Shown: piece by piece, positions 32,785 to 63,239 of the stretch
Layout of the letters: every line of letters begins with the position of its first letter
Numbering within the stretch: position 1 is the stretch's first letter
Virus record (IMG/VR): IMGVR_UViG_3300042893_001103
Location: 1-64,000 of that record
Length of the DNA: 64,000 nt
Source of the DNA: a virus
Strand: one strand, 5' to 3'
Made by a program: the position numbers and the translations under genes
Notes under the pieces: model-generated
Databases searched by the model: none
Told to the model about the DNA's origin: nothing
The model's input: only the letters and a program-made list of their open reading frames with translations

Positions 32785-35700
32785 ATGAGTCAGCAAGATA
32801 TTCAATTTAAAGCCATTCCAGGCCAATTCAACATTGACGAGGCCCAAGGCGTCGTTGAGTGTTTCGTCGCCGGCATCGGCAATAAGGACTCAGTAGGAGA
32901 CGTTCTAATTACTGGAGCATTCACCAAAAGCCTTACCCGCCGCAAGCCCCGTGTTGTTTGGGGACACAACTGGAACGACCCAATCGGTAAAGTTCTTGAG
33001 ATTTACGAAGTTGCCCCAGGGGACAGAAGACTTCCAACAAAGATGCTCAACGCCGGTATTGGTGGCTTGTACGCAAAGGTTCAATTCAATCTCAACTCAG
33101 AAAAAGGTCGGGAAGCCTTCGCCAACGTCGCGTTCTTCGGACAAGAACAAGAGTGGTCAATCGGATACAAAACGCTTGATTCAATTTTTGACCCGAACAT
33201 CCAAGCAAACATTCTAAAAGAAGTTGAACTTTACGAAGTATCGCCAGTACTACATGGTGCCAATCAATTGACTGGAACAATTTCTGTAAAGTCTGACGAA
33301 ACAGCCGAAAAGCACATGCCCGGAATGATGATGCCTCACCATACTGGAATGAACCAAGGTCCAAAAATTATCGTCGTTAGACAGGGTGATGATGACGACG
33401 ATGACGACGACAAACCAATTTTCTCAGAGGGTCTTGCTCGGGCGCTTGGTGACAATGAAAAAGAAAGATTGACACGCGAACTACAAAGCAGAAGCGGTTC
33501 CTCAATTCAACTAGTTTCCGCTACTGAAAGCACGGCAAAGTTCAGAAGAATGACCTCTGATGGTCGTTCTGTAATGTACAGAATCGGATATCACACTCCA
33601 GACAATTACGTTACCTTTATGTTTGGCAAGCCTGAACTGGCAGACGGACAACAACCGAGTGGTTCACGTACGGTTGTTCCGTCACAGATGCCTTCAATGC
33701 CAATGCAGGTCAAGCCTGGCGTGCCAACTGGCGCAACGAACTTCGTTGTTAGTCCTGAATACGTAATGCCTAAAGGTGAGGATTATGAAAAATCAGCCTT
33801 TGACGAAGAACTAGAAAATCTTGCTCAGATTCTTGACGAGACATTTGATGTAAAAGTTGGAAGAACGCTTAGTTCCCGCAATATGTCAAAACTAAAAACA
33901 GTCCTAGAGACACTTCAAGACATTGTTTCATCAGCGGAAAAAGATGTTGAATCAAAAAGTGATTACCTAATTCCTGTCAAACTGGAAAACGCGTTTGAGA
34001 CCAAGCAATTACTTGACCCAATTTTTGATTATCACAGGGTTGAATCTCACGTGACGGAAGATGGCATTGTCATCACAACCGAAGTAACACAAGAATTTAT
34101 AGAGGCTATTGGCGTAGCCGAAAAAGCCCTGGGGCGAACGCTAAGCGGGGGCCTGGGAAAATTAGGCCGCGCCGGTAGGGGCGCGGTAAACTTTGACCCA
34201 AAAGCATGGGACGGTGACGGAGACGGAATCGTACAAGAAGGAACGCCGTACTCACGTCCTGCAATTCCTGGAGTAAACGACCGTGCATCTGGTGGAAGAG
34301 TTGACACCAATGCTGCAACCCGCGCATGGCAAAATCAACGCAGAAGCGGAATGGCTTCCCGTATGGGTAGCGATGACAACGCAGATGAATACGACGAAGC
34401 AATGGGACCACCAATGCGACGCCCAAGCAGAGGTATGGCTGACGACCCAGTTGGTGACGCTGCTTCAGAAAACCTTGATAGAGACAGAAACGCTGGCGCT
34501 GTAAGAAGTGGACTTAGTTCAAGCACTGCAGGTGTTGTCAAAATTGATATTCCTCAAATTGACAATGCCATAGAAGAATTGGCAGCCAAAGACATAGGAA
34601 TGTCTCTTAAAAGATTCAGAGAACTAACAGACGAGGGTCGTCTTCCGGAACGTTATCAAAAAGCATTTTCGGACAGAGTTAAAGTTCTTAATGATATTTT
34701 TTCTAATTTAAGCAAAGAAAAACTAGACGAAAGTCCTGGAAAAGTGCTTTCAGAAATTAGAAAAAAATTAGTTGACACTCTTTCTTCTGACGACAAAGAA
34801 GGCGACGGTTTCATTAGCCAATTTAACGATAGAAGAGAAATACAAAACTTTATAGACGGAATTGAAGAAGTTCTTAACTTGGCTTTTGACGACTATGTTG
34901 ACAGGGCTAGAGAAAATGGAACAGGCGAAGAAGCGGACGACCTTCAGGCCGAGTTGTTGTCTGACTTCACACAATCTTTAAAAAAAATATCCGAAAAATC
35001 AAAGAACCTTTTTGATGCAAGAACAAAATCCTTCCGTGGAACAGAACCAGCAAAAGCCAAAAAGGAATCAGAATCAGAAAAAGAAAGATTATTTGACTTG
35101 CTCAAAAATCTTCTTGACATGGAAGAACTTGCTAGGTACCTAGACAGCACAGAGGGCGTTGTTCCTACGGATGCATTTATTGACAGAATCAGAAAGGGAA
35201 ACATAAGTGACGAAGACCTAGTACAACTAAATGGCTTTTTTGAAGATGCACTAGAAAATATTATTACCCTTGACCCAAGCCTTGACCCAGAAAAATTAGC
35301 AAAAGAATTTTCTGATGCAATTAGAGAAGGTGCAAAAAATGATGAATCAGGAGTAATTCAGCGTATTGCAAAAGAACTGGGTGACGATGGCGTCAGTGAG
35401 GACCTCGTTCAATACCTCAAGGATGGTAGAGAAGGTTCTCCATTCCTTCCGAATAGAGGTAAAAAGGAAAGAGAAATACTTCGCGGCTTTGCTTCCAGAA
35501 CCGGCGGTGGTGACTCAAAAGGTAAAAAATTTGATGTTAGGGATAGAAAACAAAGAGAAGACAAAATCGTTGAAATGTACAACGACGGTGAAACTGTTGG
35601 CGACATATCTCGCTTTTTAAGTTCCCAGCCTGGTTCAAATGGTATTTTTACGGAACTTGCTAACATTCGCAATGTTATAGATAAAAGAAGAAAAGCGGGA

Positions 35701-38700
35701 GACGTTCCTCTTCGTTCCGTCAATCCAAACAAGGAAAGACAAGCAACAACTAACCTACGTAATGAAATCATTAGACTTTATAACGATAATGATGAATTGT
35801 CGTATCGTGAAATAGCAAAACTTACTGGTACAACCCAAGCCAATGTTACAAACACCCTTTCTTCAATGCGTAGAGGAAATGATTCTCGCATTAGAAGCGG
35901 GGACAAAGTAAGAGGCTTTTCGTCTTCTACCGGTAGTGATGGAGAGAGTGGACTTGGTTCCTCATCTGACAAGCGCGAAATGGACATGACGCTTGCTGAA
36001 TATGCAGAACTAAATGAAGTTCTTAAAAAATATATGGATGAAAGCCAACTAGACGGCATCGGTGCCGACGAAGACATGCAAGTCATCCAGAACATTCTGG
36101 ACAAACTTGATGAGAGTTCAGCCGCAAACGACTCAATCCCTCTTACGGATAAAGAAATTGACGACTACATGGACACTCTCACAAGAATGAGAGACAATGG
36201 TCCGGTTGAAGATTCAGACGATAAAGAATCAATAGATAAATTGATTGACTCTTTGAAGAAAACAAAAGACTCAAAAGATGGAACCTACGAATCAGATGCT
36301 CTTCAGCAGGCTGGAACCAGGCTTTCCCGTCCTTCTCGTGATGGACAAGGTGGCGGTCGTGGAAGAACAGCAAAACGCCCTCGCGGCTTTAAGAGTTCCA
36401 ATGGAACAATAAACCCACACAAAAAACTTGATATAGAACTAGATGATTCTGAAATCGGCGAACTTCGTGACGAACTTCAGGGTTTTATGAAAATGACAGA
36501 CAACCCTGCTCCGCTCAGGGCCATTGCTGAAAAACTTGAAAAAGCCACAAACGGCAAATTTTCAGTTGATAAAGACGAATACGAAGCAGTCATAAAAGAA
36601 ATAGACAAAATGCGAACCGACAGAGGAGTGGTCACGTCTGATGTGGTTGGGGTTCTTGAGCAAGCAGCAGAATCTCAAAAAGGAAAATACTCCAGTATTG
36701 ATGTTCGTGGTGGACGAGGCTTTGAATCATCTACTGGTGGTGGCAAAAACAACGGAGCACCATCCGACATTCCTGAGACAATGCAAAAGCAACTCATCAT
36801 GTGGGGTAGACAGCAGGGCGGACTCAGACTTGTCCAAGAAGCAATTCAGAGGTTTGACAAAGACAAGGGAACAATGCCGGCGTCGTACTGGAAGAGATTG
36901 CGCACCATGTATGAAAACATGGGGCCAGGTTCCGCTAGTGGTGCTGCTCGCAGAACTGGACGTAGGGGCATATTCGGTCGCGGAAAAGATACAGACACTT
37001 CACCACGTGGTAGTGCTGGATTTATAATTGACGACAGACCAGTACCTAAAGGCTTGCTTGATAACACAATGTCAAACAACCCGATTGTTACAGATGACTT
37101 CGTAGACACCAATTCTGGCCCCATGGGTGGCTCACAGGGTGGCGGCGTATTCAAGGACCCCAAGACTGGTAAGGAATATTACATCAAGCCGCCAAAGTCA
37201 CAAACTCATGCAGAAAACGAATCACTAATGTCTCGTTTCTATGAAAGATTAGGTATTCCTGCTGGAAAAGTAAAAGTAGGAACCTACAAAGGTCGTCCAA
37301 AAATTGTTAGCGAAATGGTTCCAGGGGCAAAACAGGTTGACCATGAATCCGAAATAAAGAACTCAGCATGGAAGAAGGCAGTTCAAGACACTTTTGTGGC
37401 TAATGCATGGCTTGCAAACTGGGACGCTGTTTCAAACTCGGGAAACACCATTAAGGGCGGAGACGGTAAAGCGTACGTCATTGATGTTGGTGGTGCTGGT
37501 CTTTTCCGAGCAAGAGGAGAAGCAAAGGGCTCGGCGTTCGGTCCTATCGTCGGGGAAATGGAATCCTTGAGAGACCCAAATCAGTCGGGCGCTAGACGTG
37601 GTGTTGCATACTGGGGAGACATTCCTCCAGCAGAAATTGCTCGTCAGGTAAAAGCAATTGGAGCAGTATCAGATTCTGAAATCAAAGAAATGGTTGATGC
37701 TGTAATTTCCGACAAAGGTGAAGCAAAGAAACTTTCTGACACCCTTATTGCGCGACGTGACTATCTGGTACAAAACTGGTCCACTGGCAAAAATAGTGGA
37801 ACTGGCAGAAGAGGTCGTACTGGCTTTTCTTCGGAAACCGATAATTACGAAAGAAGAAACAAGAGGCCTGGCGTAGCGCCAGCAATGAGACCTGCCGACT
37901 TTGAAGTACGTCCTCGTGACGGCGAGCCTACGGGTGTTGGCAAGGGTGGAGTAATGGGAACAAAGCCCGACCCCAAGTTCACTGGAGACTCTTTTGACCA
38001 AGCCAAACCAGAAGAATGGGAAAAACTTACAATTGATGAAAAATGGGGTTGGATGCTTGGGGAAGGAAACCCTGAAAAGGGTGGAACGATGTCCCCTGCC
38101 GCCTATCAGGGTGCAATGAGGAAACTTGGCGAAGAAGAAGCCAGGGAAGAAACAAAGCGCATGACTCCAGAAGAACGAAGAAAATCCCGTTCAGAATCAA
38201 GACAAAGCGCCATGGATGAACGTTCTGACAACGAGAAAGAAAGACTCACTTCCGAAAGAGAAGAGCGTCAAAAAGAAGCACAAGAATCATCTAAGCGAGT
38301 TAAGGAAGAAGCAACTGCGGAGCAAGCGAAAGCCAAGAGACAGGCGCGTCTTGATGCTTTCAATGAATGGATTGATGACTCAATTCGTGAACTTTCAGGA
38401 ATGGAATACGACGAAACAGACATCAATCCTGATTCTGAAGACATCTGGGACACTGTTTCCACAATCCTTGGCGTTGAAGACATCACTCCAAAGTCGCTAA
38501 AAGAAGCAATTGACGAACTTTCATCATATATTGACATTACTTCAGGAGAAAATGCTTACGAAAAGAAGAGTGTCGCTCGTGCTAACGCACTATTGAAGAA
38601 ACTCTTAAAGATGCAATCAGAGTATTCGGAAGACAAGTGGTTTAACGACAGAGAGGGTGGAGTGTCTGGATTCCAGTCTTCAACTGGCGACAAACCTCGC

Positions 38701-39309
38701 CCTCCAAGAGACGGTAGACCGGCACGTCCTGGAACACCAGAAACGCCTCAATCAAATGCCAAACGCGAAGGGGAAATTAAAAAACTATCTACGCTGATTG
38801 AGCAGGTTGTTGCAGAACTTGATGAAAAACGTCAAAACCCTTCACCAAAAAAGGGAAGAATGGGATTCTCCTCATCAACCGGCAAAACGATGATTACTGA
38901 CGAAGCAACCTTTTTTAAGGACATTGAGAATTCTCTTGCAAAAGAGATTAGAGCCGCGCAAAAGGCTAGAAACACTAAAGCAGCATCAGGATTAACAAAA
39001 CTTCAAGAGATTATAAAAAGAAGTGAAGCCTCAAAAACAGGCGACAGAAGAACAAACGTCGGAAGTATCTACATGACGATGGATGAAGTTGACTTAATTC
39101 TTGACGGTCTTCAATTTGCCCTTGACCAACAGGTACAGGCTGGTGGAGATAAAAGAATTGGCTGGTACTCAAGACTAATTGAAAAAGTTGCCGGCGCAGC
39201 CATGTCTACATTTATTGATAAAAGTACATCAGAAATTGGTTCAACAAGAAGAACAGTCACAAACAAAGACGGCGTGAAGAAAAAAATCAATATTGTCCCA
39301 GAAGCATAA
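32785..39309 (+). CDS. Giant modular protein: HK97-type prohead protease followed by HTH, helical repeat modules and a HipA/PI-kinase-like domain
   Basis: N-terminal DSVGDVLITGAF, WGHNW..PIG, EWSIGY, LYEVSPVLHGAN; kinase-like GGSQGGG..YYIK..AENE..NWD..GN..VIDVGG; AGGAG RBS. Confidence 0.85.
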   Translation: MSQQDIQFKAIPGQFNIDEAQGVVECFVAGIGNKDSVGDVLITGAFTKSLTRRKPRVVWGHNWNDPIGKVLEIYEVAPGDRRLPTKMLNAGIGGLYAKVQFNLNSEKGREAFANVAFFGQEQEWSIGYKTLDSIFDPNIQANILKEVELYEVSPVLHGANQLTGTISVKSDETAEKHMPGMMMPHHTGMNQGPKIIVVRQGDDDDDDDDKPIFSEGLARALGDNEKERLTRELQSRSGSSIQLVSATESTAKFRRMTSDGRSVMYRIGYHTPDNYVTFMFGKPELADGQQPSGSRTVVPSQMPSMPMQVKPGVPTGATNFVVSPEYVMPKGEDYEKSAFDEELENLAQILDETFDVKVGRTLSSRNMSKLKTVLETLQDIVSSAEKDVESKSDYLIPVKLENAFETKQLLDPIFDYHRVESHVTEDGIVITTEVTQEFIEAIGVAEKALGRTLSGGLGKLGRAGRGAVNFDPKAWDGDGDGIVQEGTPYSRPAIPGVNDRASGGRVDTNAATRAWQNQRRSGMASRMGSDDNADEYDEAMGPPMRRPSRGMADDPVGDAASENLDRDRNAGAVRSGLSSSTAGVVKIDIPQIDNAIEELAAKDIGMSLKRFRELTDEGRLPERYQKAFSDRVKVLNDIFSNLSKEKLDESPGKVLSEIRKKLVDTLSSDDKEGDGFISQFNDRREIQNFIDGIEEVLNLAFDDYVDRARENGTGEEADDLQAELLSDFTQSLKKISEKSKNLFDARTKSFRGTEPAKAKKESESEKERLFDLLKNLLDMEELARYLDSTEGVVPTDAFIDRIRKGNISDEDLVQLNGFFEDALENIITLDPSLDPEKLAKEFSDAIREGAKNDESGVIQRIAKELGDDGVSEDLVQYLKDGREGSPFLPNRGKKEREILRGFASRTGGGDSKGKKFDVRDRKQREDKIVEMYNDGETVGDISRFLSSQPGSNGIFTELANIRNVIDKRRKAGDVPLRSVNPNKERQATTNLRNEIIRLYNDNDELSYREIAKLTGTTQANVTNTLSSMRRGNDSRIRSGDKVRGFSSSTGSDGESGLGSSSDKREMDMTLAEYAELNEVLKKYMDESQLDGIGADEDMQVIQNILDKLDESSAANDSIPLTDKEIDDYMDTLTRMRDNGPVEDSDDKESIDKLIDSLKKTKDSKDGTYESDALQQAGTRLSRPSRDGQGGGRGRTAKRPRGFKSSNGTINPHKKLDIELDDSEIGELRDELQGFMKMTDNPAPLRAIAEKLEKATNGKFSVDKDEYEAVIKEIDKMRTDRGVVTSDVVGVLEQAAESQKGKYSSIDVRGGRGFESSTGGGKNNGAPSDIPETMQKQLIMWGRQQGGLRLVQEAIQRFDKDKGTMPASYWKRLRTMYENMGPGSASGAARRTGRRGIFGRGKDTDTSPRGSAGFIIDDRPVPKGLLDNTMSNNPIVTDDFVDTNSGPMGGSQGGGVFKDPKTGKEYYIKPPKSQTHAENESLMSRFYERLGIPAGKVKVGTYKGRPKIVSEMVPGAKQVDHESEIKNSAWKKAVQDTFVANAWLANWDAVSNSGNTIKGGDGKAYVIDVGGAGLFRARGEAKGSAFGPIVGEMESLRDPNQSGARRGVAYWGDIPPAEIARQVKAIGAVSDSEIKEMVDAVISDKGEAKKLSDTLIARRDYLVQNWSTGKNSGTGRRGRTGFSSETDNYERRNKRPGVAPAMRPADFEVRPRDGEPTGVGKGGVMGTKPDPKFTGDSFDQAKPEEWEKLTIDEKWGWMLGEGNPEKGGTMSPAAYQGAMRKLGEEEAREETKRMTPEERRKSRSESRQSAMDERSDNEKERLTSEREERQKEAQESSKRVKEEATAEQAKAKRQARLDAFNEWIDDSIRELSGMEYDETDINPDSEDIWDTVSTILGVEDITPKSLKEAIDELSSYIDITSGENAYEKKSVARANALLKKLLKMQSEYSEDKWFNDREGGVSGFQSSTGDKPRPPRDGRPARPGTPETPQSNAKREGEIKKLSTLIEQVVAELDEKRQNPSPKKGRMGFSSSTGKTMITDEATFFKDIENSLAKEIRAAQKARNTKAASGLTKLQEIIKRSEASKTGDRRTNVGSIYMTMDEVDLILDGLQFALDQQVQAGGDKRIGWYSRLIEKVAGAAMSTFIDKSTSEIGSTRRTVTNKDGVKKKINIVPEA

Positions 39310-39418
39310 ATAGTATGCGTTCTCGCTCAGAGGCGCATGCTAAGTTATACTTTTATAAACTATTCATAATGTGATATTGACACTCGTGTCTTTACTCGCT
39401 AAAAAACAGGAGTTACCA

Positions 39419-40795: not shown

Positions 40796-40811
40796 AGAAA
40801 GCGTGGCCCGT

Positions 40812-46882: not shown

Positions 46883-47478
46883 ACAGCAGAGACATTAAGG
46901 CAGACCCCCTTGGTGGGATAATCCCGCAGGAACTGGTTACTGGAGACCTACTCAAAGGTCGCGGACCAAGAAGAGGAAATCTTGAGCGCCTTCTTCGCTA
47001 TTGGCGGCCAATCATGAAAAAACCAGGCGGCTTTAGGCGTTGCAAAGTCATCCTTGCCGACCATCCAGAGTTGTACCCGTTGAACAATATCTGTGCTTGG
47101 TTGCATCACGAAACTACTGGTCTTTGGCCAAACGAGGGATGTCATCACCCTGGCATGAAAAACTGCCGCAAGAAAATTAAAAAAGGAATAAACGGTACTC
47201 TTTTCTCTGACTCTCAATTTGATAACAGAGTAAGGAAACTTGCTGGAAATAGCAAGAAATCTTTACAACAAGAAACCGAACGATACGAAGACTCGGTAGT
47301 AACTAATGCCGACGAAAAACACTCAGTCTTGGTGATGCGTGACTTTTCTGAGATGGAACCAGATTTCTGTAAAACCATGTCCGACGATTCAAGTTGGGAA
47401 ATAGAAGGCGAAGACGAAATGGGGAATACCAAGTCCGTTCCCTACGATTCTGAACAGGATGACGACGTTGAGCAATAG
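46879..47478 (+). CDS. Head-associated protein with Cys/His motif
   Basis: LLRYW..PGGFRRC...CAWLHHETTGLWP motif resembles modules in actinophage head-maturation proteins. Confidence 0.6.
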   Translation: MNSRDIKADPLGGIIPQELVTGDLLKGRGPRRGNLERLLRYWRPIMKKPGGFRRCKVILADHPELYPLNNICAWLHHETTGLWPNEGCHHPGMKNCRKKIKKGINGTLFSDSQFDNRVRKLAGNSKKSLQQETERYEDSVVTNADEKHSVLVMRDFSEMEPDFCKTMSDDSSWEIEGEDEMGNTKSVPYDSEQDDDVEQ

Positions 47479-49465
47479 AGAAATAAATTTCGTCAAAAGA
47501 AGAATTACTCTTCTTTCCGTAAAAACGGTTCGTAAGGTAAATCCCGTAATAACCATGCGCTTAAACGGCCAACAAAACGTAATAGATTACAAGGCTTTAG
47601 CAAAGCGCTCCGGTCTGACACGCAAGTACAGTGTGAAGGTCGGAATACTTGGTACGCATTCTACAATTGGTCAAGGAGCGCAGGCCATCGGTTCGGCAGC
47701 CATTCCGGGCAACCTGAGCCCTCTACGAAGCCCTATCAGGTCTGGTGCGTGGGGTGCCCTAACTCCCGGAAAACCAAGAATCCCTGGCGGTACTGGTGGA
47801 GCAAATCGTGCTAGTCGTTGCCCAGAGGGGTATCAATACGGCGGTCGTTTTACCGACTCGCGTTTTTCCACATGTGGCGCAAAACTGTTTGACATACCTT
47901 CTGCTATTGGTGTGGCAATCGGAGCACTAAGAAGAATAGCCCGTGGCGCTAGAGCAATTGCAGGACAGTCAACCCCAATCACTGGCGAGACTCCACAAGA
48001 TTCAATAGTTGATTCAAGACGTCCCCAGATTCCGAGAGTCGGAAACCCCAACCCAGTAGCACGCGCGGCTGCAGCAAAAAACATTGTCTCTCAAATCGGG
48101 CAGTCTGATGCGGCTGTCGTAAGAATGGTCAGAAAAGACGGGTTTGCGTTAGAACCAGTAGTTCCAGCACAGGTACTAAGAGCGATTCCAGACAACAGAG
48201 ACATGGAAGGCGCTGATTACATATTGTCAGTTCAGGGCCTTCCTCAACTAGGCGGAGAAGAACTTGGACTCCTCTCAAATACTGGGGTAACAAAACTTAC
48301 GTACGTTCTTCCAGGAGGCTCAACGCTGTCCCTTGAAAAGAAGAGACAACTAACTGTTGGTGAAAGAAGAAAACTTGGACGCACGGTTAATGCTGCGTCA
48401 AAAATTGACATTACCAATGACCCAACTGCACGATTAAAAGAAGTGGTTGCTCAAACTGGTGACGGAATAGGTTATTCAGAAAATTTCATAAATGTAAAAA
48501 ACCCCAATGAAGTTGTTTCCGCAGGTGGGAAATCACTCCCACGATGGGCTGATGAATTGTTTGGTAAGGGCAGAAAAGCGAAGCCACTAGCCAATGCAGA
48601 AAGAGCAACAGACTCAAATAGCGCCGTAGGAAAAAACATAACAAGCGTTGACGCTGCAGTTGACCAAATAATGTCTGGAAGACCACTTTCGGAAATTGAC
48701 CCAATGATTTTACAGCAAGCACTTACAAAGGCAAACGTATTCAAGAGACAAAAATTGGACCAAAGAAGAGAATTGCTTGAAACGCCTAATGGCAATAAGT
48801 ACATGCTCTATTCCTCGTCTGGAAAATATGAGCACCTTGGTCAAAAACTTGCAAGCGATATCCAGCAGCATCTTGGTCTTGAGTCGCCAGACGTTTTCTT
48901 TGTCGGTGAAGGAGATAAGAGAAAATACATAGTTGAGGATGCCTCTTCTCTAATTAGAGGATTTCAGGTTGACCGCAGGCGCAAATTCTCTGACTACAAA
49001 CCAGAAGATGTGGCAAAAATGCTTGTATCCGACTGGCTCACAGACCAGAGAGACAGAGACCCTGGTTCTATAGTTCCAGTTTCAAATGGAACAGACACGA
49101 AACCGGTTGTTACCAATAACTTCACTTCCGGACTTGCGGACCTTGATGAAGTGTCAATTGTTGAGCGTCAAAAACTGACCTTCTCTCAATTCATGGATGT
49201 AAAAAGAACTGAAACATACTCACAGTATTTTCAAAACCTGCAGCAACAGCAAAGATTTGCCTTCAGAAGAGAGATTGACGCTCTACTATTAAGAGCAAGA
49301 CAATTTAACTTTACACAATTCAAAAATCGCCTTTACAGTGATGGTCGCTTAACTGATGCTGAAAAAGCCCACCTAAATATTATTGGGCGTATTTTAGAAA
49401 CAAGAATTCAAAACTACGCAGGTAGTAGGGAAAATTTAATGGAAATCCTCGGAGTCAAAAAATGA
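47459..49465 (+). CDS. Polyvalent protein with degenerate JAB-like and HipA-like pseudokinase domains
   Basis: RCPEGYQYGGRFT; KLASDIQQHLGLESP; DWLTDQRDRDPGSI. Confidence 0.6.
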   Translation: MTTLSNREINFVKRRITLLSVKTVRKVNPVITMRLNGQQNVIDYKALAKRSGLTRKYSVKVGILGTHSTIGQGAQAIGSAAIPGNLSPLRSPIRSGAWGALTPGKPRIPGGTGGANRASRCPEGYQYGGRFTDSRFSTCGAKLFDIPSAIGVAIGALRRIARGARAIAGQSTPITGETPQDSIVDSRRPQIPRVGNPNPVARAAAAKNIVSQIGQSDAAVVRMVRKDGFALEPVVPAQVLRAIPDNRDMEGADYILSVQGLPQLGGEELGLLSNTGVTKLTYVLPGGSTLSLEKKRQLTVGERRKLGRTVNAASKIDITNDPTARLKEVVAQTGDGIGYSENFINVKNPNEVVSAGGKSLPRWADELFGKGRKAKPLANAERATDSNSAVGKNITSVDAAVDQIMSGRPLSEIDPMILQQALTKANVFKRQKLDQRRELLETPNGNKYMLYSSSGKYEHLGQKLASDIQQHLGLESPDVFFVGEGDKRKYIVEDASSLIRGFQVDRRRKFSDYKPEDVAKMLVSDWLTDQRDRDPGSIVPVSNGTDTKPVVTNNFTSGLADLDEVSIVERQKLTFSQFMDVKRTETYSQYFQNLQQQQRFAFRREIDALLLRARQFNFTQFKNRLYSDGRLTDAEKAHLNIIGRILETRIQNYAGSRENLMEILGVKK

Positions 49466-52400
49466 AAAAAGTATCTACCCTATTTGATGCGTTGCGTAAT
49501 GAAAAGTTTGCTATTGCTGTTCAGGACGACTATGGAGTTAAATACTACGGCTCTGAAGGTCAAGCAAGAGAATGGGCGGACTGGGCAAACTCTTTTAATA
49601 CCAAGACACTTGACACAAATAATCTTCCAGCAGGAATTATTCAGGGTCCATATAAAAACGTTAGTGAGCATTCTCTCAAGTCCTTACTGAATGCTTTTGG
49701 TAACAACGTTACGGAAATTAACAACTCTTTCACCGACTCTAAGGCGTACTCATATAAAAGTTCCATGAAGATGGATAATGGCGCTCGCGTTCCAGCAGTA
49801 ATGGACACACCAATTGGGCACTTTACTAAATCCCAATACGCAAGCGCAGTAAATTACAAAGGTCTAGTTATTCGTACTCAAATCAAAGAAGGAAGTTTTC
49901 TTTTTGAGGCAAAAGTAAATAATTATGCATTTAACTTTGAAAACTGGATGTACAACTCAACTCCTTCAAAAGCGGAGATTAAATCCCTTCGCAACAGAAT
50001 TGATACAAACGTAGGTCGTTCTTCGGAAAGACGTTTAGGAATGAAACTGAAGGCCGCCCTCGTTGAAAGAGACGGACGCTACAGAATTGGGTATGCACAA
50101 ACCCTAGAAACCAAGTCGCTTGAAGATTCTCTTGAGGTAAAAGGAATTGGCGAAAGAATAGGCGGAGGAGCACGCATCGGAAGAAGAGCGGCTCGTAGTA
50201 TGGCCATGTTTGACCCAAAGGCTTGGGACGGCGATGGTGACGGCGTAGTTCAAGAAGGTACTCCTTTTGAGAGACCAGCAATTCCTGGAGTCAACGACAA
50301 AACAACTGGTGGAGTTGTTGATGCAGATGCTGCAAAAAAGGCATGGAAAGAATCTCAGAAGACTCCAGGCAGTTCAACGCCTTCAAGAGAGTCAAGCCCT
50401 AGACGCAGGGTTTCCAACGCAGCAGGCTCAGCAGATAGACAAGTTTTTACTACTCGCACGCCAGCCGCAGCAGGTCGCAAAATACCTGACTCAAAGCCGA
50501 TAAGTAGAAGCGGTCTAGCGTCACGAACACAGGCTGATATTGATAAAGAAGTATCAAAGCAAGTCACAGACACGGCAAAAGAAGTTCTTACCAAGAAATC
50601 AACGTCCACCGATTTACGTTCACTGATTAGTGGCCTCGGTCCTGACGGAGCAACAGAACTAAGCAGAGACCAGCAAGACAGAATTAACGACATTATTGAT
50701 GCGTTTGATAATGACGAATATGAAAATAATGAAGATTTTATTTCGGAAATTGCAAATGTTTTGCAAAAAAAGATTCCCGTAAATCAAAAACCAAAACAAA
50801 CAGGCATGCGTTCACGTGTTGGTAAAGCACAAATGGATAGACAGGTTCAGGGTCTTGCGTCACGTAGTGGTCGTTCAAAAACAAAATCAAAACTTAAAGC
50901 AACACCAGGCCGTGATGCTGTTGACGAAAAAGATGGTTCCCTTTGGGCTTCACTTACTCCGGAACAACAGGATGTTGTAAAGAAAAACACACAAGCAGCG
51001 TACGACGGACTTCAGACATACATCAAGAAAGATAAATACCTAAGCACGTGGTGGAATGACTTTTTGAGTCTTAATCGCAAAAAGAAAGCAACTGACGCAG
51101 ACGGAAAACCCTGGTCCGACCAGTCAAGAATTTCTGGAGAAGCATTTACTTCTTTTGAAGTTGCGTTAAACGGTGCTCTTTCTGGTGAAAATTCAGACAT
51201 AGCGTCTGCAGAGTCTGGTCTTGCAGCAATGAGGGCCACTCTGTCCGATGCTGAAATCAAAAAAGCAGAAAATAGAATTGCAGCACAGAAAAAAAGAGTT
51301 GAAAGACTTCAAAAAGTCTTAGACGACCTTAGAACTTATGACCAAATGGATAAATCTGACGACTGGTCGCTTCTTGAGCACCTTCACCCAGAACAAAGAA
51401 AAAAGTCTTTTGGTCTTGGACTTAGCAAGAGTGAAGCCGACATGACGGTAAGTCCTTTTGCTGATGGAAAACTTCCAAAGGGAATGAAGGTTGGGGAGCC
51501 ATCAACCATCTTTGAAGAAGTTGGTGGAATGAAGAGAGCCGCTCCACGACTCATCGGAGAAAAAGGTGACGCAAAACTTGAAGACCTTGCAAACAGAATT
51601 CTTCGCCCGAATCCGCAAAGAGCAGCACGTCGCGCTGTTAGAAAACAGAAAAAGGCTGGTCGTTCAGGTTTCAGAATTGAACAAGAAGACAAACCTGATA
51701 TTACAAGCAAGATTAAAAAAAGAATTAAAAAAGCCAAACGAGCAGTCAAAAGAACCTTTGGAAAACAAAGAAACGAATCAAAAATTCTTAACGGAATCAG
51801 AAGAGAACAAACTGTTAGAATTTTTGAAAGAGACCCAGATGGAAAAATTGTTATTGGAAAAGAAACAATTCAACTACTTGACGAAGTCGTTAATAAGGCA
51901 CGCCAGAATAACGGTCGTGGAGAATTCAAGGGTCAAGCAGACGCAAACATGCTCCTTGGTTTCTTGTGGGAAAACAATGGCTTCAACAGACAGCCAGCCC
52001 GCTTATCGGAAGATGAAGCAATGGCTTTGATTGATGCTGGATGGCACCCAATCAAGAGAGGCGTTTCTGCTGAAGAATATGCGGATGAATATTTAACAGA
52101 ATCTCGCAGAAGAATTACTGGTTCCAACGGAGAAATGGAAGGACCTGGAGAATACTGGTCAAATGCTGTTTCAACAAACTGGGATGACCCAAGATATTGG
52201 GGTAAACCGACCGAAAGCAATGGATTGTTTGGATTTCTAAGTCCTGATTATAGGGTTGCTTCAAGAGTTGATAGAGAACGTATGGCTTCGGAATATCAAA
52301 AGTTTGCACAAGCATTTGAAAATGTAATTTCTGTAATGCCCAAAGGCGAAGCAGAAAAAATGGAACCCGCAGATTTCATGAGAGAACTACGTACCGCTCT

Positions 52401-52749
52401 TTCAAGGAACGTTGCAGACGGCGACCCAGTATGGGATGGCGAAGTTGGACAAATGTGGTCTTCGTTGATGAGTGCTTACGAATCATCCAGTGGACCAGAA
52501 AAAACACAACTATGGAATGTAATTAATTTTATGTCTACTCAACTTACAAGACAAACAAGATGGGAAAACTATGTTCCTTTAATTTTAGGCTACGATGGCA
52601 TTGATACCGGAGACAACACAGTAAGAACTGGTGGAACGGCCGCTGGAAAACAAGTCCTTATTTTCAATAGACAGGGCCTTGCTGTTCTTGACACGCCAAT
52701 AAGCATTAAGGGAATTAATGACATTCTTAAGGAAGCAGATAAAAAATGA
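49462..52749 (+). CDS. Polyvalent protein with C-terminal ADP-ribosyltransferase-like domain
   Basis: FDPKAWDGDGDG motif; NGFNRQP...IKRG...GEMEGPGEYW...LGYDGID...VLIFNR. Confidence 0.6.
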   Translation: MKKVSTLFDALRNEKFAIAVQDDYGVKYYGSEGQAREWADWANSFNTKTLDTNNLPAGIIQGPYKNVSEHSLKSLLNAFGNNVTEINNSFTDSKAYSYKSSMKMDNGARVPAVMDTPIGHFTKSQYASAVNYKGLVIRTQIKEGSFLFEAKVNNYAFNFENWMYNSTPSKAEIKSLRNRIDTNVGRSSERRLGMKLKAALVERDGRYRIGYAQTLETKSLEDSLEVKGIGERIGGGARIGRRAARSMAMFDPKAWDGDGDGVVQEGTPFERPAIPGVNDKTTGGVVDADAAKKAWKESQKTPGSSTPSRESSPRRRVSNAAGSADRQVFTTRTPAAAGRKIPDSKPISRSGLASRTQADIDKEVSKQVTDTAKEVLTKKSTSTDLRSLISGLGPDGATELSRDQQDRINDIIDAFDNDEYENNEDFISEIANVLQKKIPVNQKPKQTGMRSRVGKAQMDRQVQGLASRSGRSKTKSKLKATPGRDAVDEKDGSLWASLTPEQQDVVKKNTQAAYDGLQTYIKKDKYLSTWWNDFLSLNRKKKATDADGKPWSDQSRISGEAFTSFEVALNGALSGENSDIASAESGLAAMRATLSDAEIKKAENRIAAQKKRVERLQKVLDDLRTYDQMDKSDDWSLLEHLHPEQRKKSFGLGLSKSEADMTVSPFADGKLPKGMKVGEPSTIFEEVGGMKRAAPRLIGEKGDAKLEDLANRILRPNPQRAARRAVRKQKKAGRSGFRIEQEDKPDITSKIKKRIKKAKRAVKRTFGKQRNESKILNGIRREQTVRIFERDPDGKIVIGKETIQLLDEVVNKARQNNGRGEFKGQADANMLLGFLWENNGFNRQPARLSEDEAMALIDAGWHPIKRGVSAEEYADEYLTESRRRITGSNGEMEGPGEYWSNAVSTNWDDPRYWGKPTESNGLFGFLSPDYRVASRVDRERMASEYQKFAQAFENVISVMPKGEAEKMEPADFMRELRTALSRNVADGDPVWDGEVGQMWSSLMSAYESSSGPEKTQLWNVINFMSTQLTRQTRWENYVPLILGYDGIDTGDNTVRTGGTAAGKQVLIFNRQGLAVLDTPISIKGINDILKEADKK

Positions 52750-53075
52750 GTGACAAAGATACGTTTCATGAAAAACACTTGGAGTATTCAAAACTAACAA
52801 AATACCCTCCCTTTACAATTAGTTTGAAAAAGGCTCGCGAATTTGGGAATGACTTTTTAAAAGAAGAAGACAGGATTTTTTCTGAAGTTGATTCCGGTAA
52901 CGAAGATGCATGGGCTCGCGCATTTTCAACAATGGAAGTAAAATGGGATGACGATATTGAGGAAGCACGTCTTTACCAAAAACGATACGGTGACAATATT
53001 CTTGAGGCAAGAAAAGCAGCAATGAAATTAAACAACCTAACCGAAGACGACAAAGACGTTCCTCTGTTTATTTAA
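52746..53075 (+). CDS. Hypothetical protein (candidate immunity/partner)
   Basis: 109 aa, charged, ATGA-coupled to the ART-like gene. Confidence 0.6.
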   Translation: MSDKDTFHEKHLEYSKLTKYPPFTISLKKAREFGNDFLKEEDRIFSEVDSGNEDAWARAFSTMEVKWDDDIEEARLYQKRYGDNILEARKAAMKLNNLTEDDKDVPLFI

Positions 53076-53077
53076 TT

Positions 53078-55453
53078 ATGGAAGATTCGCTTGTTGGTAA
53101 AATTGCTGCCGTTAGGCAAGCAGCGGACATGGGCTGCTTCGGCGCGCATCAAATTTCAAATGGCGATTGGCTTCCATGCTCATCAACTAAACAGTTTTTG
53201 ACAATTATGAACGGATTTGATGTCAAGTCAAGAATTTCTCTTGACGAGATGGAGAACTGGTCTTCAATAAGAAAGTCAAAAGGCAAAAAACGCAAGAAGC
53301 GTTGGGAAAAACTTCGCGAGAGAAGAATTCTAGGAATTGAATCACTTGACAACGGTGGTCTTGTTTCTCCAAGAAATTCAATGAATATGGTTAATGGTGG
53401 CACTAACCCCCCAATAACTTATGGTGCTTCAAATCCTTCAAGCATGTCTACGAAGAGCATTCAGCCAGCATTCATGCCCAGAGACAATGACCCTGACGTA
53501 TTTGTGGACATTGAATCAGCAAGAAAAAGAGCACAACAACTTGGATGCATCGGTATAAGTAGAAGAATGTCAAAAGGCGGCAAAACCGTATGGATGCCAT
53601 GTACCAACATTACCGACTACAACAATTTGACAGGAATGACTGCTCTTGGAAGAAATAATCTTCAGAAAAGAAATGAAAAAATAGTCAGAACCGTTATAAA
53701 AGAAAATCTTAAAAAGAAAAAAACAACGATTCAAGAAGATATATACGGCAAGGCTCTTGGCCCAAGAATACGAGGCATAGCCCGTGCGGCAATGTCTAGA
53801 TTTGACCCTGATGCTTTTGACGGAGACGAAGATGGAATTATCCAGGACGGAACAGCGTTTGAAAGACCCAACACTCCGAATGCTCGCATCCCCAAGACTG
53901 TAGATAGGGAAGTTTCTCCCTCCGAAGTTTCGGCAGTACGCAAGTGGATGAGTGCCATGACTTCTTCAGATATGGATTCCTTCCGAGGCGAACCGATTGA
54001 AGCATACGATGGTGTTCCTGGTTCAAGACGTGGCTTGGCATCTAGTGGGCCCGGTTTCATTATTGACCCCAAGGGTCCAAAACAAATGGGCGGAAGAATG
54101 GCACCAAAGCCATTGGCCATAACAGAACTAAGAAACCCAGAAGCCAGTCCGACCAATCCGTTTAGAAATCTTGGTGGAAGATTGATGAGCAAATTGATTA
54201 GAGGAATGGTAAAGCCCGAACACAGACGTAAGCAAGAGAGAACAACCTATCTAATTGGAGGCAATACTGGTTCCGGAAAAACCACCGTACTTGACGAACA
54301 CTTAATACCAAAAGGATTGGTTCCTTCACACGAAGAGGCTGCCCTTATTGACCCAGACTTTATTAAGAAAGGTCTTGTTGGATATGACGATGGACAAGGC
54401 GCTGGTCGTGTTCACAGAGAGTCTCAAGCATCAACCGACAAGACAATCAGGGATGCCGTTTTGGACGAACTGGACATGGTAATTACGGGTTCTGGGGCAT
54501 CAAGACAAATCCAACACATGCGTGAAGCGTCTGAGCGTGGTGAAAAAGTAGTGGGCCACTGGGTTCATGTTCCGCAACGAGAAGCATCTAGACGCATTAA
54601 GAAGAGAGTGGATGAGACCAACAGGTATATACCTGACAACACCGCCCACATGGCACAAAGCATTCCTAAGGTTATTTCAACAGGCTTTGAAGAAGACTTA
54701 CTAGACGAGTTCTATTTATGGGACAACGATGTTCCAGCAGGTTCACCACCAAAACTAATTGCAAAAAAATCCAAAGGAAAAGATTTTGAGATATTTGACC
54801 AGTCAAAATTTGAAGAATTTGCTGGAAGTAAAAAATGGGCAGACACGTGGGTGGAAACGTCAGAAGACAGAGACGTGTCAAGAAAAGGTTTTGAGTCCTC
54901 AAGTTACACAGGCAAAGAAGCCGCAGTTGCTTTAAGAGAGTCTGGTTTTGAAGTAATCATTGACAAAAATATAGAAGTTCGTCTTCCTGCAGGAAGTGAT
55001 GCAGAAAAATTCTTTATAGAACGAGTTCTACCATATATGCCAAACAAATTTGGAAGAACGAACACACACGCGTCACGACTTACCCTGCCAGGGATTCCAA
55101 TTGTTGAAGACGTACAAAAGTTGCTCGGGGTGAGTATTGATAAAAGAAAAATTGTTGACAAAAACTATCGTAAAAAATTTAAAATGCAACTCATGTCAAA
55201 CGACCTAGAAGTTTTAGCAGAACTTTTTGCTAAAGCCCCTATTGTTGGTCCAAACGGCGAATCAAGGTTTGGCGATATGTTGCTTACTAACGTTGGTGTT
55301 GAGTTTGATGAAACAGTAAAGCAAATTGCTAAAAAGGCTGGTTTTTTGGAAAAAGAAATTTCAATGTTGATAAGTGAAGGGTTCACGAAAGAAGATATTG
55401 AGAAAATGTCAAAAGAAGAAATACAAGAACTACTAGACGCGCTTCCGGAATGA
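53078..55453 (+). CDS. Polyvalent protein: two DUF3721-like Cys motifs plus a zeta-toxin-like P-loop kinase
   Basis: A..MGCFGAH..WLPC and A..LGCIG..WMPC; GGNTGSGKTT, IDPDFIK, VHRES, RIKKRVDETNRYIP, LWDND. Confidence 0.75.
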   Translation: MEDSLVGKIAAVRQAADMGCFGAHQISNGDWLPCSSTKQFLTIMNGFDVKSRISLDEMENWSSIRKSKGKKRKKRWEKLRERRILGIESLDNGGLVSPRNSMNMVNGGTNPPITYGASNPSSMSTKSIQPAFMPRDNDPDVFVDIESARKRAQQLGCIGISRRMSKGGKTVWMPCTNITDYNNLTGMTALGRNNLQKRNEKIVRTVIKENLKKKKTTIQEDIYGKALGPRIRGIARAAMSRFDPDAFDGDEDGIIQDGTAFERPNTPNARIPKTVDREVSPSEVSAVRKWMSAMTSSDMDSFRGEPIEAYDGVPGSRRGLASSGPGFIIDPKGPKQMGGRMAPKPLAITELRNPEASPTNPFRNLGGRLMSKLIRGMVKPEHRRKQERTTYLIGGNTGSGKTTVLDEHLIPKGLVPSHEEAALIDPDFIKKGLVGYDDGQGAGRVHRESQASTDKTIRDAVLDELDMVITGSGASRQIQHMREASERGEKVVGHWVHVPQREASRRIKKRVDETNRYIPDNTAHMAQSIPKVISTGFEEDLLDEFYLWDNDVPAGSPPKLIAKKSKGKDFEIFDQSKFEEFAGSKKWADTWVETSEDRDVSRKGFESSSYTGKEAAVALRESGFEVIIDKNIEVRLPAGSDAEKFFIERVLPYMPNKFGRTNTHASRLTLPGIPIVEDVQKLLGVSIDKRKIVDKNYRKKFKMQLMSNDLEVLAELFAKAPIVGPNGESRFGDMLLTNVGVEFDETVKQIAKKAGFLEKEISMLISEGFTKEDIEKMSKEEIQELLDALPE

Positions 55454-63149: not shown

Positions 63150-63239
63150 ACTCAATTTTACCTCGCCTGGTTCACCTGGTCGGTGAACTGTGTCTTATAA
63201 ACACAGTCTAAACATAAGGTTCAATTCCTTAGGCGAGGA

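Follow-up and report, generated by a model that had tools for sequence, protein, structure and literature searches.

Why does an actinobacterial phage place nine open reading frames, several of them coding for giant proteins, between the genes for its portal and its major capsid protein, and what might these proteins do? The original prediction for the 64,000-nt stretch of DNA analysed here (the window) was that they are loaded into the prohead, cut into modules and delivered with the DNA for host takeover or anti-defence.

The portal-to-capsid block and its family

All nine predicted ORFs are present on the plus strand at 32785-55453, and they are translationally coupled. Their summed length is 22,578 nt (overlaps counted twice) against a block span of 22,669 nt. 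The sole wide gap, of 109 nt, separates slots A and B; the other junctions measure -4, -4, -20, -4, -4, +2 and +16 nt. The starts of B (ATG 39419) and C (ATG 40812) were refined because of a 458-aa database twin and because the relatives' alignments begin at residue 45. The features, with refined ORF sizes, are as follows.

30622..32676, +: portal protein, 684 aa, bounding the block upstream (PF04860, E 3.8e-48; phrog_2662, E 1.4e-67)
32785..39309, +: slot A, 2174 aa (Pfam, PHROG and NCBIfam matches, conservation map, module placement)
Slot A aa 1-180, +: S78 prohead protease (Pfam, PHROG, NCBIfam)
Slot A aa ~200-520, +: conserved region ending in the FDPKAWDGDGDG element at aa 470-500 (conservation map)
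Slot A aa ~901-1044, +: HTH/sigma-r4-like module (linker-delimited)
Slot A aa 1445-1668, +: candidate PI3/4K- or HipA-like kinase module (Atlas lead)
Slot A aa 2027-2174, +: conserved C-terminal module of the linker-delimited train
34348..38883, +: ten slot A linkers (regex and six-frame scan; PSSM 16-26 bits), G residues at aa 522, 576, 901, 1044, 1056, 1201, 1312, 1680, 1962 and 2027, starting at nt 34348, 34510, 35485, 35914, 35950, 36385, 36718, 37822, 38668 and 38863
39419..40795, +: slot B, 458 aa, scaffold-like (100% identical to its 458-aa database twin)
40812..46475, +: slot C, 1887 aa, with Cys-element leader, HExxH...E, one linker and variable modules
nt ~41400-41480, +: Cys-element leader of slot C, RCPPG...RFTN...C (Cys element in 15 of 15 genomes)
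nt 42522-42536, +: zincin-like signature HExxH...E of slot C, HERAH
nt 44151-44171, +: slot C linker (motif scan)
46472..46882, +: slot D, 136 aa, small and conserved (30 loci matched by tblastn)
46879..47478, +: slot E, 199 aa, conserved and rich in Cys and His (58-95% identity in the best 25 of 45 matching loci)
47459..49465, +: slot F, 668 aa (conserved in all 14 relatives)
49462..52749, +: slot G, 1095 aa, with slot-specific N-domain, FDPKAWDGDGDG element, two linkers and a 650-aa module
Slot G aa 250-280, +: FDPKAWDGDGDG element (motif comparison)
Slot G aa 351 and 464 (nt 50512 and 50851), +: linkers (motif scan)
52746..53075, +: slot H, 109 aa, small and conserved (23 loci matched by tblastn)
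53078..55453, +: slot I, 791 aa (PF12518, E 1.3e-11; PF06414, E 2.1e-8)
Slot I aa 1-215, +: DUF3721-containing N-domain (PF12518)
Slot I aa 243-270, +: FDPDAFDGDEDG element (motif comparison)
Slot I aa 319 and aa 604, +: linkers (motif scan)
Slot I aa 383-524, nt 54224-54649, +: zeta-toxin-like P-loop kinase (PF06414)
Slot I C-terminal part, +: variable C-module (module map)
55593..56954, +: major capsid protein, 453 aa, downstream boundary (PF05065, E 8.9e-44)

The predicted protease at the start of the first ORF is borne out by Peptidase_S78 at aa 23-169 (44.4 bits, cut-off 21) and phrog_80 (E 1.9e-27). In 15 of 15 genomes the first ORF starts with this domain (72-100% identity), and residues H61 and S125 are invariant in these and in the Gordonia phage DalanDe. 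The capsid protein has the HK97 fold with an N-terminal delta-like domain (PDB 3qpr, HK97 gp5, E 2.4e-52); in the 3qpr alignment K103/S104 of HK97 aligns to S144/A145.

The block is not unique to one phage. Capsid-protein relatives are encoded by 438 of 440 candidate IMG/VR stretches, with 72-96% identity across the family. The portal was located in 26 of 30 searched contigs; in all 26 contigs with both genes the two share a strand, the portal being 16-37 kb upstream of the capsid gene. These distances, and the A-to-I slot order kept across 14 fully sequenced portal-capsid intervals, show a dedicated locus conserved across a widespread family of uncultured, WhiB-encoding, contractile-tailed actinophages of ~120-170 kb, in which about one sixth of the genome is given over to the block. 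Slots C, F and G had no tblastn match among 50,697 GenBank phage records. Conservation within the block is uneven: of 14 relatives, 9-14 conserve residues 1-520 of A, 150-458 of B and ~50-300 of C, together with E and F, and just 1-8 share the remainder of A, C, G and I. The giants are built of conserved leaders and variable cargo.

The leaders fall into two kinds, which confirms that the predicted shared motifs are real. A Cys element is common to B, C and F, and FDPxAWDGDGDG (a DGDxDG, Ca-loop-like element) to A, G and I. Slot B combines an N-terminal four-Cys element, an acidic stretch, PepSY-like repeats (E 0.0019, under the cut-off; PF03413 is on record in relatives) and a C-terminal motif also found at the C-terminal end of a Gordonia protease-scaffold fusion; its residues 366-442 match 1546-1622 of DalanDe gp27 at 53% identity (E 4.8e-21). 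Slot D had no match in the Pfam and PHROG family searches, and slot E no useful match in the Atlas search. Slot H accompanies long G and I slots and is missing where the I slot has only ~210-245 aa.

The effector-like labels of the original prediction fared differently. The zincin-like label holds: in the C-slot protein HExxH is found at aa ~470-620 in this phage (G000) and 13 of 14 relatives, G007 having HExxH in other ORFs, and the H, E, H, E and E of the invariant HExxH...E are kept in 12 of 12 aligned slot C sequences. So does the zeta-like P-loop label (PF06414, 34.3 bits, cut-off 22.3). The kinase-like label stands by fold for slot F, in which a disordered N-terminal 190 aa, bearing the Cys element at aa 121-140, precedes a protein-kinase-like fold at aa ~190-668 (AF2 and Foldseek). 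Mean pLDDT is 66.9, mostly 75-90 in blocks past aa ~190, and the best PDB match is CtkA (E 1.5e-5, TM-score normalised by target length 0.52), followed by CotH, actin-fragmin kinase and HipT/HipA. For A 1445-1668 the same label is an Atlas lead. A tblastn match named 'ADP-ribosyltransferase' aligns to the kinase-like module and is the middle of an 1177-aa multidomain protein. HTH is below threshold in the window, with Sigma70_r4 on record in close relatives. The ART-like label is weakly supported. Slot G (AF2 pLDDT 72.4) matched uncharacterised phage proteins (E 2.7e-6) and an ART-PolyVal-like protein (E 0.016) in BFVD, and Foldseek against the PDB gave no match for its 650-aa module.

A genome-specific linker and moving modules

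Slots A, C, G and I together hold 15 copies of the 7-residue linker [RS]-G-[FLM]-x-S-S-T-G, where shuffling gives a mean of 0.62, and 14 of 15 genomes have their own enriched variant (5-23 copies, at most 0.62 expected by shuffle), G007 having no detectable linker; these in-block counts are circular because the regexes and PSSMs derive from the block in which they were counted, and only the tape-measure and genome-wide results are independent. The scan of all 15 genomes found no linker in B, D, E, F, H or the capsid protein. The linker codons differ at synonymous sites, and selection is therefore on the peptide.

Linkers coincide with module borders: 14 of 50 distinct homology breakpoints lie at most 30 aa from a linker, against 8.1 expected (p = 0.009). 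Domain content is not invariant across the relatives' portal-capsid intervals, and modules shift between slots, in line with the predicted module swapping. In relatives, A's kinase-like module closes the G slot as its C-terminal module, the zeta module is found inside 3462/3687-aa proteins in other genomes, and the same modules are seen both as C-terminal ends and as internal segments.

Outside the block the motif recurs in the tail.

12546..17267, -: tape-measure protein, 1573 aa, outside the block (gene order sheath, tube, chaperone, then this ORF)
Tape-measure aa 40-48, nt 17124-17150, -: linker GSGFASSTG (24.1 bits)

This site is the best outside-block match in the window, and the tape measure holds that place in two complete genomes as well. 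The relatives' tape-measure proteins bear their genome's own linker variant. In 8 of 14 genomes there is an N-terminal site scoring 8.5 bits or more, in 7 there is one at aa 572-679 that reaches at least 11 bits, and 12 have one or more sites of at least 11 bits, a covariation that counts as about three independent motif classes because the genomes group into a few clades. Cross-class scores among the three classes are at most ~6 bits. The linker signal is therefore not confined to the head locus.

Cargo, proposed processing and rival explanations

The relatives have 315 protease-led proteins of 1195-3805 aa. For the best 120 of 315, ArdcN, MPTase-PolyVal, UvrD/AAA_30/DEAD, pentapeptide, Sigma70_r4, HTH_3, RNase_T and WYL are on record. 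The ArdC-N, MPTase-PolyVal, helicase, pentapeptide and sigma-r4 modules uphold the predicted effector theme, and by its domain content the relatives' cargo is typical of anti-defence or early takeover.

With moderate confidence, we read the block as a head-module polyvalent-protein system, which would be packaged, processed where a co-evolving site occurs and sent into the host along with the DNA. The analysis shows the gene order and coupling, conservation across the family, the motif grammar, module shuffling, covariation with the tape measure and the domain identities; packaging, cleavage, the enzyme and delivery are what we infer. The block genes would be translated as a single coupled late operon. 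Protein A would enter the procapsid, because its N-terminal S78 prohead protease must act from within the shell, and C, F, G and I might be recruited via the shared leaders (the Cys element for B, C and F; the DGDxDG Ca-loop-like element for A, G and I). A phage protease would then cut at the genome-specific linker and free the modules, which would exit the virion together with the DNA and the tape-measure protein and serve early takeover or anti-defence in the newly infected host. In this phage they would include two kinase-like proteins, the zeta-like kinase and the HTH/sigma-r4-like module; in relatives, ArdC-N, MPTase-PolyVal, helicases and pentapeptide repeats.

The comparisons between relatives point towards the original prediction, and the present reading differs from it in three respects: the linker is unlike the capsid maturation site, there is a second candidate protease, and the motif is also in the tape measure. 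The HK97-homologous maturation site of the capsid protein is VKDVYS/ALPSG. A linker-like site after the capsid delta domain is strong in the G016/G009/G011 group only (7-9 bits); in this phage it reaches a weak 0.1 bits (rank 3 of 445). Between genomes with wholly different linkers the protease domain keeps 72-80% identity, and co-evolving specificity would therefore rest on few residues. The S78 protease is, by a modest preference, the probable cleaving enzyme. The slot-C zincin, the second conserved candidate, could be the processing enzyme, a tentative assignment, and a host enzyme seems improbable. A linker motif on a tail protein is awkward for a protease confined to the prohead.

It might be asked whether the giants serve assembly only, accompanying the protease into the procapsid to form an internal core or a scaffold that sets its size and being digested at the linkers, to be expelled or left as debris with nothing functional reaching the next host. 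Digestion followed by exit from the head is known for HK97-type proteases and delta domains, the block occupies the exact place of scaffold and protease genes, B is scaffold-like with its C-terminal end shared with the Gordonia fusion, and numerous closely spaced cut sites fit degradation. We nevertheless consider this unlikely: the variable part consists of enzyme-like or DNA-binding modules (in this phage a zeta-like kinase and kinase folds; among relatives ArdC-N, helicases, pentapeptide repeats and sigma-r4), shuffling from slot to slot is unexpected in a purely structural core, and the interval length of 16-37 kb shows no obvious tracking of genome size.

The linker could instead be a hinge or docking peptide for a phage partner other than the protease (portal, chaperone or capsid interior, as for encapsulin cargo peptides), with the giants remaining intact like the N4 virion RNA polymerase, which is packaged unprocessed (PMC5512222). 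The motif in the tape measure, a protein that does not belong to the prohead, the high conservation of the protease while the motif changes, and the difference from the capsid maturation site would all suit such a role. Against it, linkers lie at module borders, the same modules occur C-terminally or internally, every genome has two conserved protease signatures, and the capsid protein stays 72-96% identical while the linker changes completely; we regard it as quite unlikely. Highly improbable, in our view, is that an island of anti-defence or takeover genes has lodged in the head operon, their products acting late in the producing cell and being processed there by phage or host proteases. The sequence gives no proof of encapsidation for C, F, G and I, and profile searches of the nine ORFs detected neither a MuF domain nor a T4-type targeting peptide. 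However, synteny of the block extends to all 14 relatives compared and its leaders are conserved, translation couples it to head genes, it starts with the prohead protease itself, and cytoplasmic anti-restriction modules made late would presumably be too late for incoming DNA.

Relation to known systems

The points newly described here are the linker, its genome-specific variants, its recurrence in the tape measure, the movement of modules between slots, a conserved core with the kinase-fold protein F, the invariant zincin signature of C and the scaffold-like B, and the relatives' cargo. Under the preferred reading, of packaged and delivered modules, the block resembles the T4 internal proteins and Alt, leader-loaded prohead proteins that are trimmed by gp21 and injected against host defences or to retarget RNA polymerase. 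The T4 proteins are small and single-domain, with a ~10-residue N-terminal leader. This type of leader is absent here, the leaders being internal Cys and DGDxDG elements after slot-specific domains.

The phiKZ-like cleavage consensus ends in Glu. Head and ejection proteins of SPN3US are cut by its own prohead protease (PMC10052503), and phiKZ-like ejection (inner-body) proteins likewise form a large head-internal mass with a short consensus, their own prohead protease and ejection (PMC10052503, PMC7411985). SPN3US-type phages are unrelated to this family, with another protease family and capsid lineage. The SPN3US substrates are separate paralogous proteins, whereas this family has trains of swappable modules; the available extract of that source places the SPN3US tape measure among the tail proteins and does not name it as a protease substrate (PMC10052503).

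Packaging and injection are predicted for polyvalent proteins, which are likewise giant, multidomain and encoded beside virion genes (Iyer, Burroughs, Anand, de Souza and Aravind 2017, PMC5512222). Zincin-like peptidase, kinase, zeta-like kinase, ArdC-N, helicase and HTH modules are common to both, in mosaic, fast-rearranging arrangements (PMC5512222). What sets this family apart from that account, as extracted, is the protease opening the protein in 15 of 15 genomes, and it adds a fixed nine-slot portal-capsid operon, a genome-specific linker code and the tape-measure link (PMC5512222). MuF polymorphic toxins of temperate phages share a conserved head-associated N-terminal part, a variable C-terminal toxin and encoding in the head module (PMC5576092). 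Compared with the available description of these, the block has no MuF domain, many modules per protein and no evident adjacent immunity gene (PMC5576092).

The nearest capsid and protease relatives in GenBank are DalanDe gp27 (Gordonia phage, Bendigovirus) and Actinomycetia phage DSL-LC01, at 41-48% identity. The available extract of the DSL-LC01 paper does not discuss its giant ORF (PMC10611076). Like this family, both have the protease/head module fused to or beside very large proteins, a 1633-aa 'capsid maturation protease' in DalanDe and a 3289-aa ORF in DSL-LC01. The DalanDe protease lies near the C-terminal end, fused to a scaffold-like tail that is the separate gene B in this family, and gp27 carries one RGFGAS motif ~50 aa ahead of the protease domain.

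Layout and spread of the block

The original prediction had read the portal-capsid interval as nine tightly packed ORFs with a protease first, and this layout was right, as judged from the ORF coordinates, their junctions and the Peptidase_S78 match of the first ORF. We refer to the ORFs as slots A to I and to the array as the block.

Features of the portal-capsid interval
30622-32676, + strand: portal gene
32785-55453, + strand: the block, ORFs A to I, with refined starts encoding 2174, 458, 1887, 136, 199, 668, 1095, 109 and 791 aa
55593-56954, + strand: major capsid gene, HK97-type

The sole real gap within the block is the 109 nt at the A-to-B junction, and the other junctions abut or overlap (-4, -4, -20, -4, -4, +2 and +16 nt). 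A scan of the block for promoters and terminators gave counts no better than chance. The large terminase gene (TerL) adjoins the block, which with its flanking portal and capsid genes lies in the virion and packaging-gene context by which polyvalent proteins, giant multidomain phage proteins, are recognised. The terminase gene and the genes of a contractile tail, in the order sheath, tube, chaperone, tape measure (a 1573-aa ORF), baseplate J and fibre, are on the - strand, divergent from the block. The capsid protein matches HK97 gp5 in the PDB (E 2.4e-52), with about 144 aa preceding the HK97-homologous cleavage position, and its gene sits 16 kb further downstream of the protease than usual. 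The source record is linear, 72,189 bp long and 48% complete (CheckV). The portal protein has a Pro/Gly/Met-rich low-complexity insert at aa 419-446 (31876-31959; PGMPGMPGMPGMP) with a weak collagen-repeat match. Shortly after the capsid gene, 57025-57573 and 58338-59342 encode an Asp/Asn beta-hydroxylase-like cupin and a DUF6321 protein; DUF6321 (PF19846) is also recorded fused to protease-led giants of relatives.

Relatives of the capsid protein were found in 438 of the 440 candidate IMG/VR stretches, on contigs of up to 169 kb, and protein B has more than 1,500 homologues, which makes this an abundant phage family in the environment. A portal gene was found in 26 of the 30 contigs searched, each time 16-37 kb upstream of the capsid gene and on the same strand, and in complete genomes the interval takes up 14-25% of the genome. 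All five complete relatives encode two or three WhiB proteins, and we therefore consider the phages to be actinophages; no WhiB was found in the window's own genome fragment. In GenBank the closest phages, with about 48% identity in the capsid protein, are Gordonia Bendigovirus and Brevibacterium Cantare, and proteins C, F and G had no tblastn match among 50,697 GenBank phage records.

The order of slots is common to the 14 relatives whose whole interval was fetched, apart from a rearranged order in G007 (L024, L092), which also has the shortest interval (16 kb) and no detected linker. Among the fetched relatives the slot-A protein is 566 to 4736 aa long, and extra giants reach 3687 aa; G011 divides slot A between two genes, and G003, G016 and G009 have a split C slot. 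A conserved core, consisting of A 1-520, the C-terminal two thirds of B, C from about 50 to 300, E and F, is present in 9-14 of the 14 relatives, and the rest of A, C, G and I is common to only 1-8 of them. Variation of domain content among relatives had been named beforehand as a test of the proposal, and the interval comparison bore it out: modules change slot and content is not invariant.

Leader elements and the linker motif

Two kinds of leader recur in the block. The first, FDPxAWDGDGDGxVQEGTxxERP, resembles a Ca-binding loop and follows the slot-specific N-terminal domains of A, G and I.

Starts of the FDPxAWDGDGDG element
Slot A: aa 470
Slot G: aa 250
Slot I: aa 243

The second leader, [FL][RK]CP[PE]G...[RQ]FT[DN]...C, lies near the N-terminal end of all C-slot and F-slot proteins, and a related four-Cys element opens all B-slot proteins (15 of 15 genomes in both cases).

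The modules of the large proteins are separated by a short repeated peptide, the linker. In the window it reads [RS]-G-[FLM]-x-S-[SR]-[TN]-G and has 15 copies (ten in A, one in C and two each in G and I) against a shuffle mean of 0.62, and in 14 of the 15 genomes the genome's own linker reaches 5-23 copies against shuffle means of at most 0.62; the patterns were picked post hoc from the same data, and these in-block statistics therefore overstate the significance. A seed search on 13 of the 15 genomes found that relatives repeat motifs of their own in the corresponding slots. Slots B, D, E, F and H and the capsid protein have no linker motif in any of the 15 genomes.

Linker variants of relatives
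G004: RGMASR
G025: GFASRG
G017, G010: R-[LF]-S-S-G-[KR]
G006: ISGRMG
G008: GITGAM
G016, G009: GMRSxR
G011: G[LM]RSxTG

The linkers tend to lie where homology between proteins breaks off, with 14 of 50 distinct breakpoints within 30 aa of a linker (expected 8.1, p = 0.009). Linkers at 1312 and 1680 enclose the A 1445-1668 module, those at 319 and 604 enclose the zeta module at I 383-524, and the linker at A 2027 is the exact start of the conserved C-terminal module of A. Copies of the linker differ in their synonymous codons, which means that the peptide and not the DNA is conserved and rules out DNA-level recombination repeats. We also considered whether the linker is the capsid maturation site, and rejected this since there is no likeness at the HK97-homologous position, between S144 and A145; a linker-like site after the capsid delta domain is convincing in one clade only (G016, G009 and G011). 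The C-terminal module of A is not a general capsid-targeting tail, because it stands at the C-terminal end in only about 7 of the 15 genomes.

Outside the block, the linker of the window phage has one strong match.

Tape-measure site
12546-17267, - strand: tape-measure ORF, with GSGFASSTG at aa 40-48, near its N-terminal end

This match, at residue 40, scores 24.1 bits, and all others outside the block score at most 12. Tape-measure homologues were available from 13 relatives (L100-L112, about 790 aa each), and the PSSM derived from each genome's block was run on its own tape measure and on those of the others. N-terminal sites score 15-24 bits in the window phage (G000), G002 and G003, 8.5-18 bits in G017, G010 and G018, and 9-13 bits in G006 and G008, against cross-scores among these three motif classes of at most about 6 bits; the genomes form few clades, so that the covariation amounts to about three independent classes. 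In seven genomes (G004, G016, G009, G011, G010, G018 and G008) a site at aa 572-679 reaches 11 bits or more, and the tape measures of G025 and G027 have weak sites only. In whole-genome scans the tape measure tops the out-of-block matches of G017 (18.1 bits, next 11.6-11.7) and of G006 (13.3 bits, next 12.8).

The tape-measure covariation does not depend on how the motifs were defined, and it argues for a single putative reader of the motif encoded by each genome. It was unexpected, and would tie head and tail maturation, or ejection, to one recognition system. One possibility, which we hold tentatively and consider rather doubtful, is that each phage has its own cleavage code in the linker, evolving together with a virion protease, and that this code marks all proteins leaving the particle with the DNA, the head giants as well as the tape measure. 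If this were true, the locus would be a natural plug-and-play platform: a leader followed by two linkers would be enough for any module set between them to be packaged, released and injected, and the fast swapping of modules (kinase, zeta, ArdC, helicase, HTH) among slots and genomes would be explained.

Proteases and effector-type modules

Two protease signatures are found in every genome, the S78 domain of A and an HExxH motif. The N-terminus of A matches Peptidase_S78 (PF04586, 44.4 bits against a cut-off of 21) and phrog_80 (E 1.9e-27), and scores 47.3 bits against TIGR01543, under the equivalog cut-off of 59. H61 and S125 (EWSIGY), which by comparison with HK97 gp4 we take to be the catalytic His-Ser dyad, are invariant in the 15 genomes and in Gordonia phage DalanDe. 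The DalanDe 'protease' gene encodes 1633 aa with the protease near the C-terminal end, whereas in the block the protease opens A. DalanDe gp27 (L098) has a single RGFGAS motif at aa ~1062, about 50 aa upstream of the protease domain, and its N-terminal 1100 aa carry no annotation.

The HExxH motif lies at aa ~470-620 of the C-slot protein (in G007 within other ORFs), and together with two downstream Glu residues it is invariant in 12 of 12 aligned C-slot sequences. No credible Pfam family was found for this zincin region of C with the 12 members searched, and a PDB profile search with the alignment gave no match. Protein B is directly upstream of C in all genomes (39419-40795 and 40812-46475 in the window). 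It has PepSY-like matches under the cut-off in the window, and PepSY is recorded in relatives. PepSY is a propeptide or inhibitor domain of M4 zincins, and B might keep the candidate zincin of C in check. The C-terminal end of B corresponds to that of a Gordonia protease-scaffold fusion.

The slot-A giants of four relatives have a second zincin motif, HE[LT].HWT.H, which fits the ArdC-type MPTase recorded for such proteins.

Second zincin motif in slot A
G017: aa 2319
G010: aa 4559
G025: aa 3387
G018: aa 1075 (HETIHWTSH)

The polyvalent hub domains MPTase-PolyVal (PF18818) and ArdcN (PF08401) are recorded in slot-A proteins of relatives, and the window itself has only the invariant HExxH...E signature in C, without a profile match. 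In public data we found 315 protease-led proteins of 1195-3805 aa. The best 120 of these include Sigma70_r4, HTH_3, pentapeptide repeats, UvrD/AAA_30/DEAD helicases, ArdcN with MPTase-PolyVal, RNase_T, WYL and LexA_DNA_bind.

At least two effector-type domains are present in each of A (protease, HTH-like and kinase-like modules) and I (DUF3721 and a zeta-like kinase), and proteins of relatives have up to about five distinct domain types. From its structural model (aa 190-668, pLDDT mostly 75-90), F is predicted to have a protein-kinase fold: Foldseek against the PDB gave 22 matches at E <= 0.001, and the top-ranked were kinases, first CtkA (E 1.5e-5, target-length normalised TM-score 0.52), then CotH, actin-fragmin kinase and HipT/HipA. 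An Atlas search with A 1430-1680 placed PI3_PI4_kinase, LepB_N and HipA_2 closest among the named clusters (scores 0.91-0.92), a lead towards a kinase-like module and nothing firmer. Aeromonas, Morganella and Escherichia phages have homologues of this A module as parts of large multidomain proteins, one of which is titled 'ADP-ribosyltransferase'. By its profile match (PF06414 zeta toxin, 34.3 bits against a cut-off of 22.3) and its Walker A P-loop (GGNTGSGKT, aa ~394-402), I 383-524 is predicted to be a zeta-toxin-like kinase. A weak likeness to sigma-70 region 4 is seen at A ~990-1030.

The original observation, which listed kinase-like, zeta-like, HExxH, ART-like and HTH domains, was confirmed as a whole apart from the ART label, for which we see weak ART-PolyVal-like fold matches. 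The tblastn match titled 'ADP-ribosyltransferase' aligns by its middle, to the kinase-like module of A. Protein G and 15 homologues had no Pfam match or credible family, and none of the 41 homologues from a database search with the G module has an informative Pfam family. In Foldseek searches the G module had no match in the PDB (best E 0.76) and a weak one in BFVD to an ART-PolyVal-like protein (E 0.016). The sequences of A, C and G had no PDB match at E <= 0.1, and the Atlas search with E gave no score above 0.81.

Modules also move between slots. In L007, L009, L010, L012 and L014 the module seen at A 1445-1668 forms the C-terminal module of the G-slot protein, and the zeta-like module lies inside last-slot proteins of 3462 aa in G006 and 3687 aa in G008. 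The small protein H (109 aa, 52746-53075) is always found ahead of long I-slot proteins with the zeta-like kinase and is missing where I is short. It could be a chaperone or an antitoxin-like partner.

Known injected proteins and the reading of the locus

The internal proteins and Alt of phage T4 are established as packaged, protease-trimmed and injected. T4-type internal proteins have an N-terminal capsid-targeting peptide of about 10 aa that ends at the gp21 site, and no such leader is common to the N-termini of the nine ORFs. With the threshold relaxed to E 5, Pfam still showed no MuF domain (Phage_Mu_F) in any of the nine ORFs, and a 'protease and MuF-like fusion' was a weak fold match (E 0.023). 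The same is established for the ejection proteins of phiKZ and SPN3US (PMC10052503). For polyvalent proteins and MuF toxins the same concept exists by prediction. The 2017 survey of polyvalent proteins (PMC5512222) predicts packaging and injection for their repertoire, which is the same as the module set of the block and of the giants of relatives. It describes prohead-type peptidases as always C-terminal, unlike the N-terminal prohead protease of A. Our literature searches returned no account of the locus, of a polyprotein that starts with a prohead protease, of the leader elements, or of the linker motif and its covariation with the tape measure, and the supplementary architecture lists of PMC5512222 might include such proteins.

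We regard as new that the prohead protease is N-terminal and that a fixed multi-gene operon has a conserved kinase, zincin-like and scaffold-like core, as well as the leader elements and the genome-specific linker with its tape-measure covariation. Injected packaged phage proteins are the first line of counter-defence, and to our knowledge they are understood in detail from few model phages only. The original interpretation, that the block proteins would be loaded into the prohead, cut into modules and delivered with the DNA, is plausible and strengthened by the comparison of relatives. The cargo locus is syntenic, and its readable grammar combines leader elements with a genome-varying linker and modules that can be interchanged. 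Should the linker prove to be a processing site, sequence alone would suffice to predict the mature 'ejectome' of uncultured phages, there would be a rule for where modules start and end, and the linker would offer a candidate principle of design for getting foreign proteins into HK97-type shells.

Elsewhere in the window, a PAPS-reductase-like gene of the cysH type (23161-24303, - strand; PF01507, E 1.5e-8) is present, and freshwater phages encoding cysH have been discussed (PMC10914622). Downstream of the capsid gene we additionally observed a B12-dependent ribonucleotide reductase (60731-62776, - strand) and a tRNA-Ile with anticodon TAT (63161-63240, + strand).
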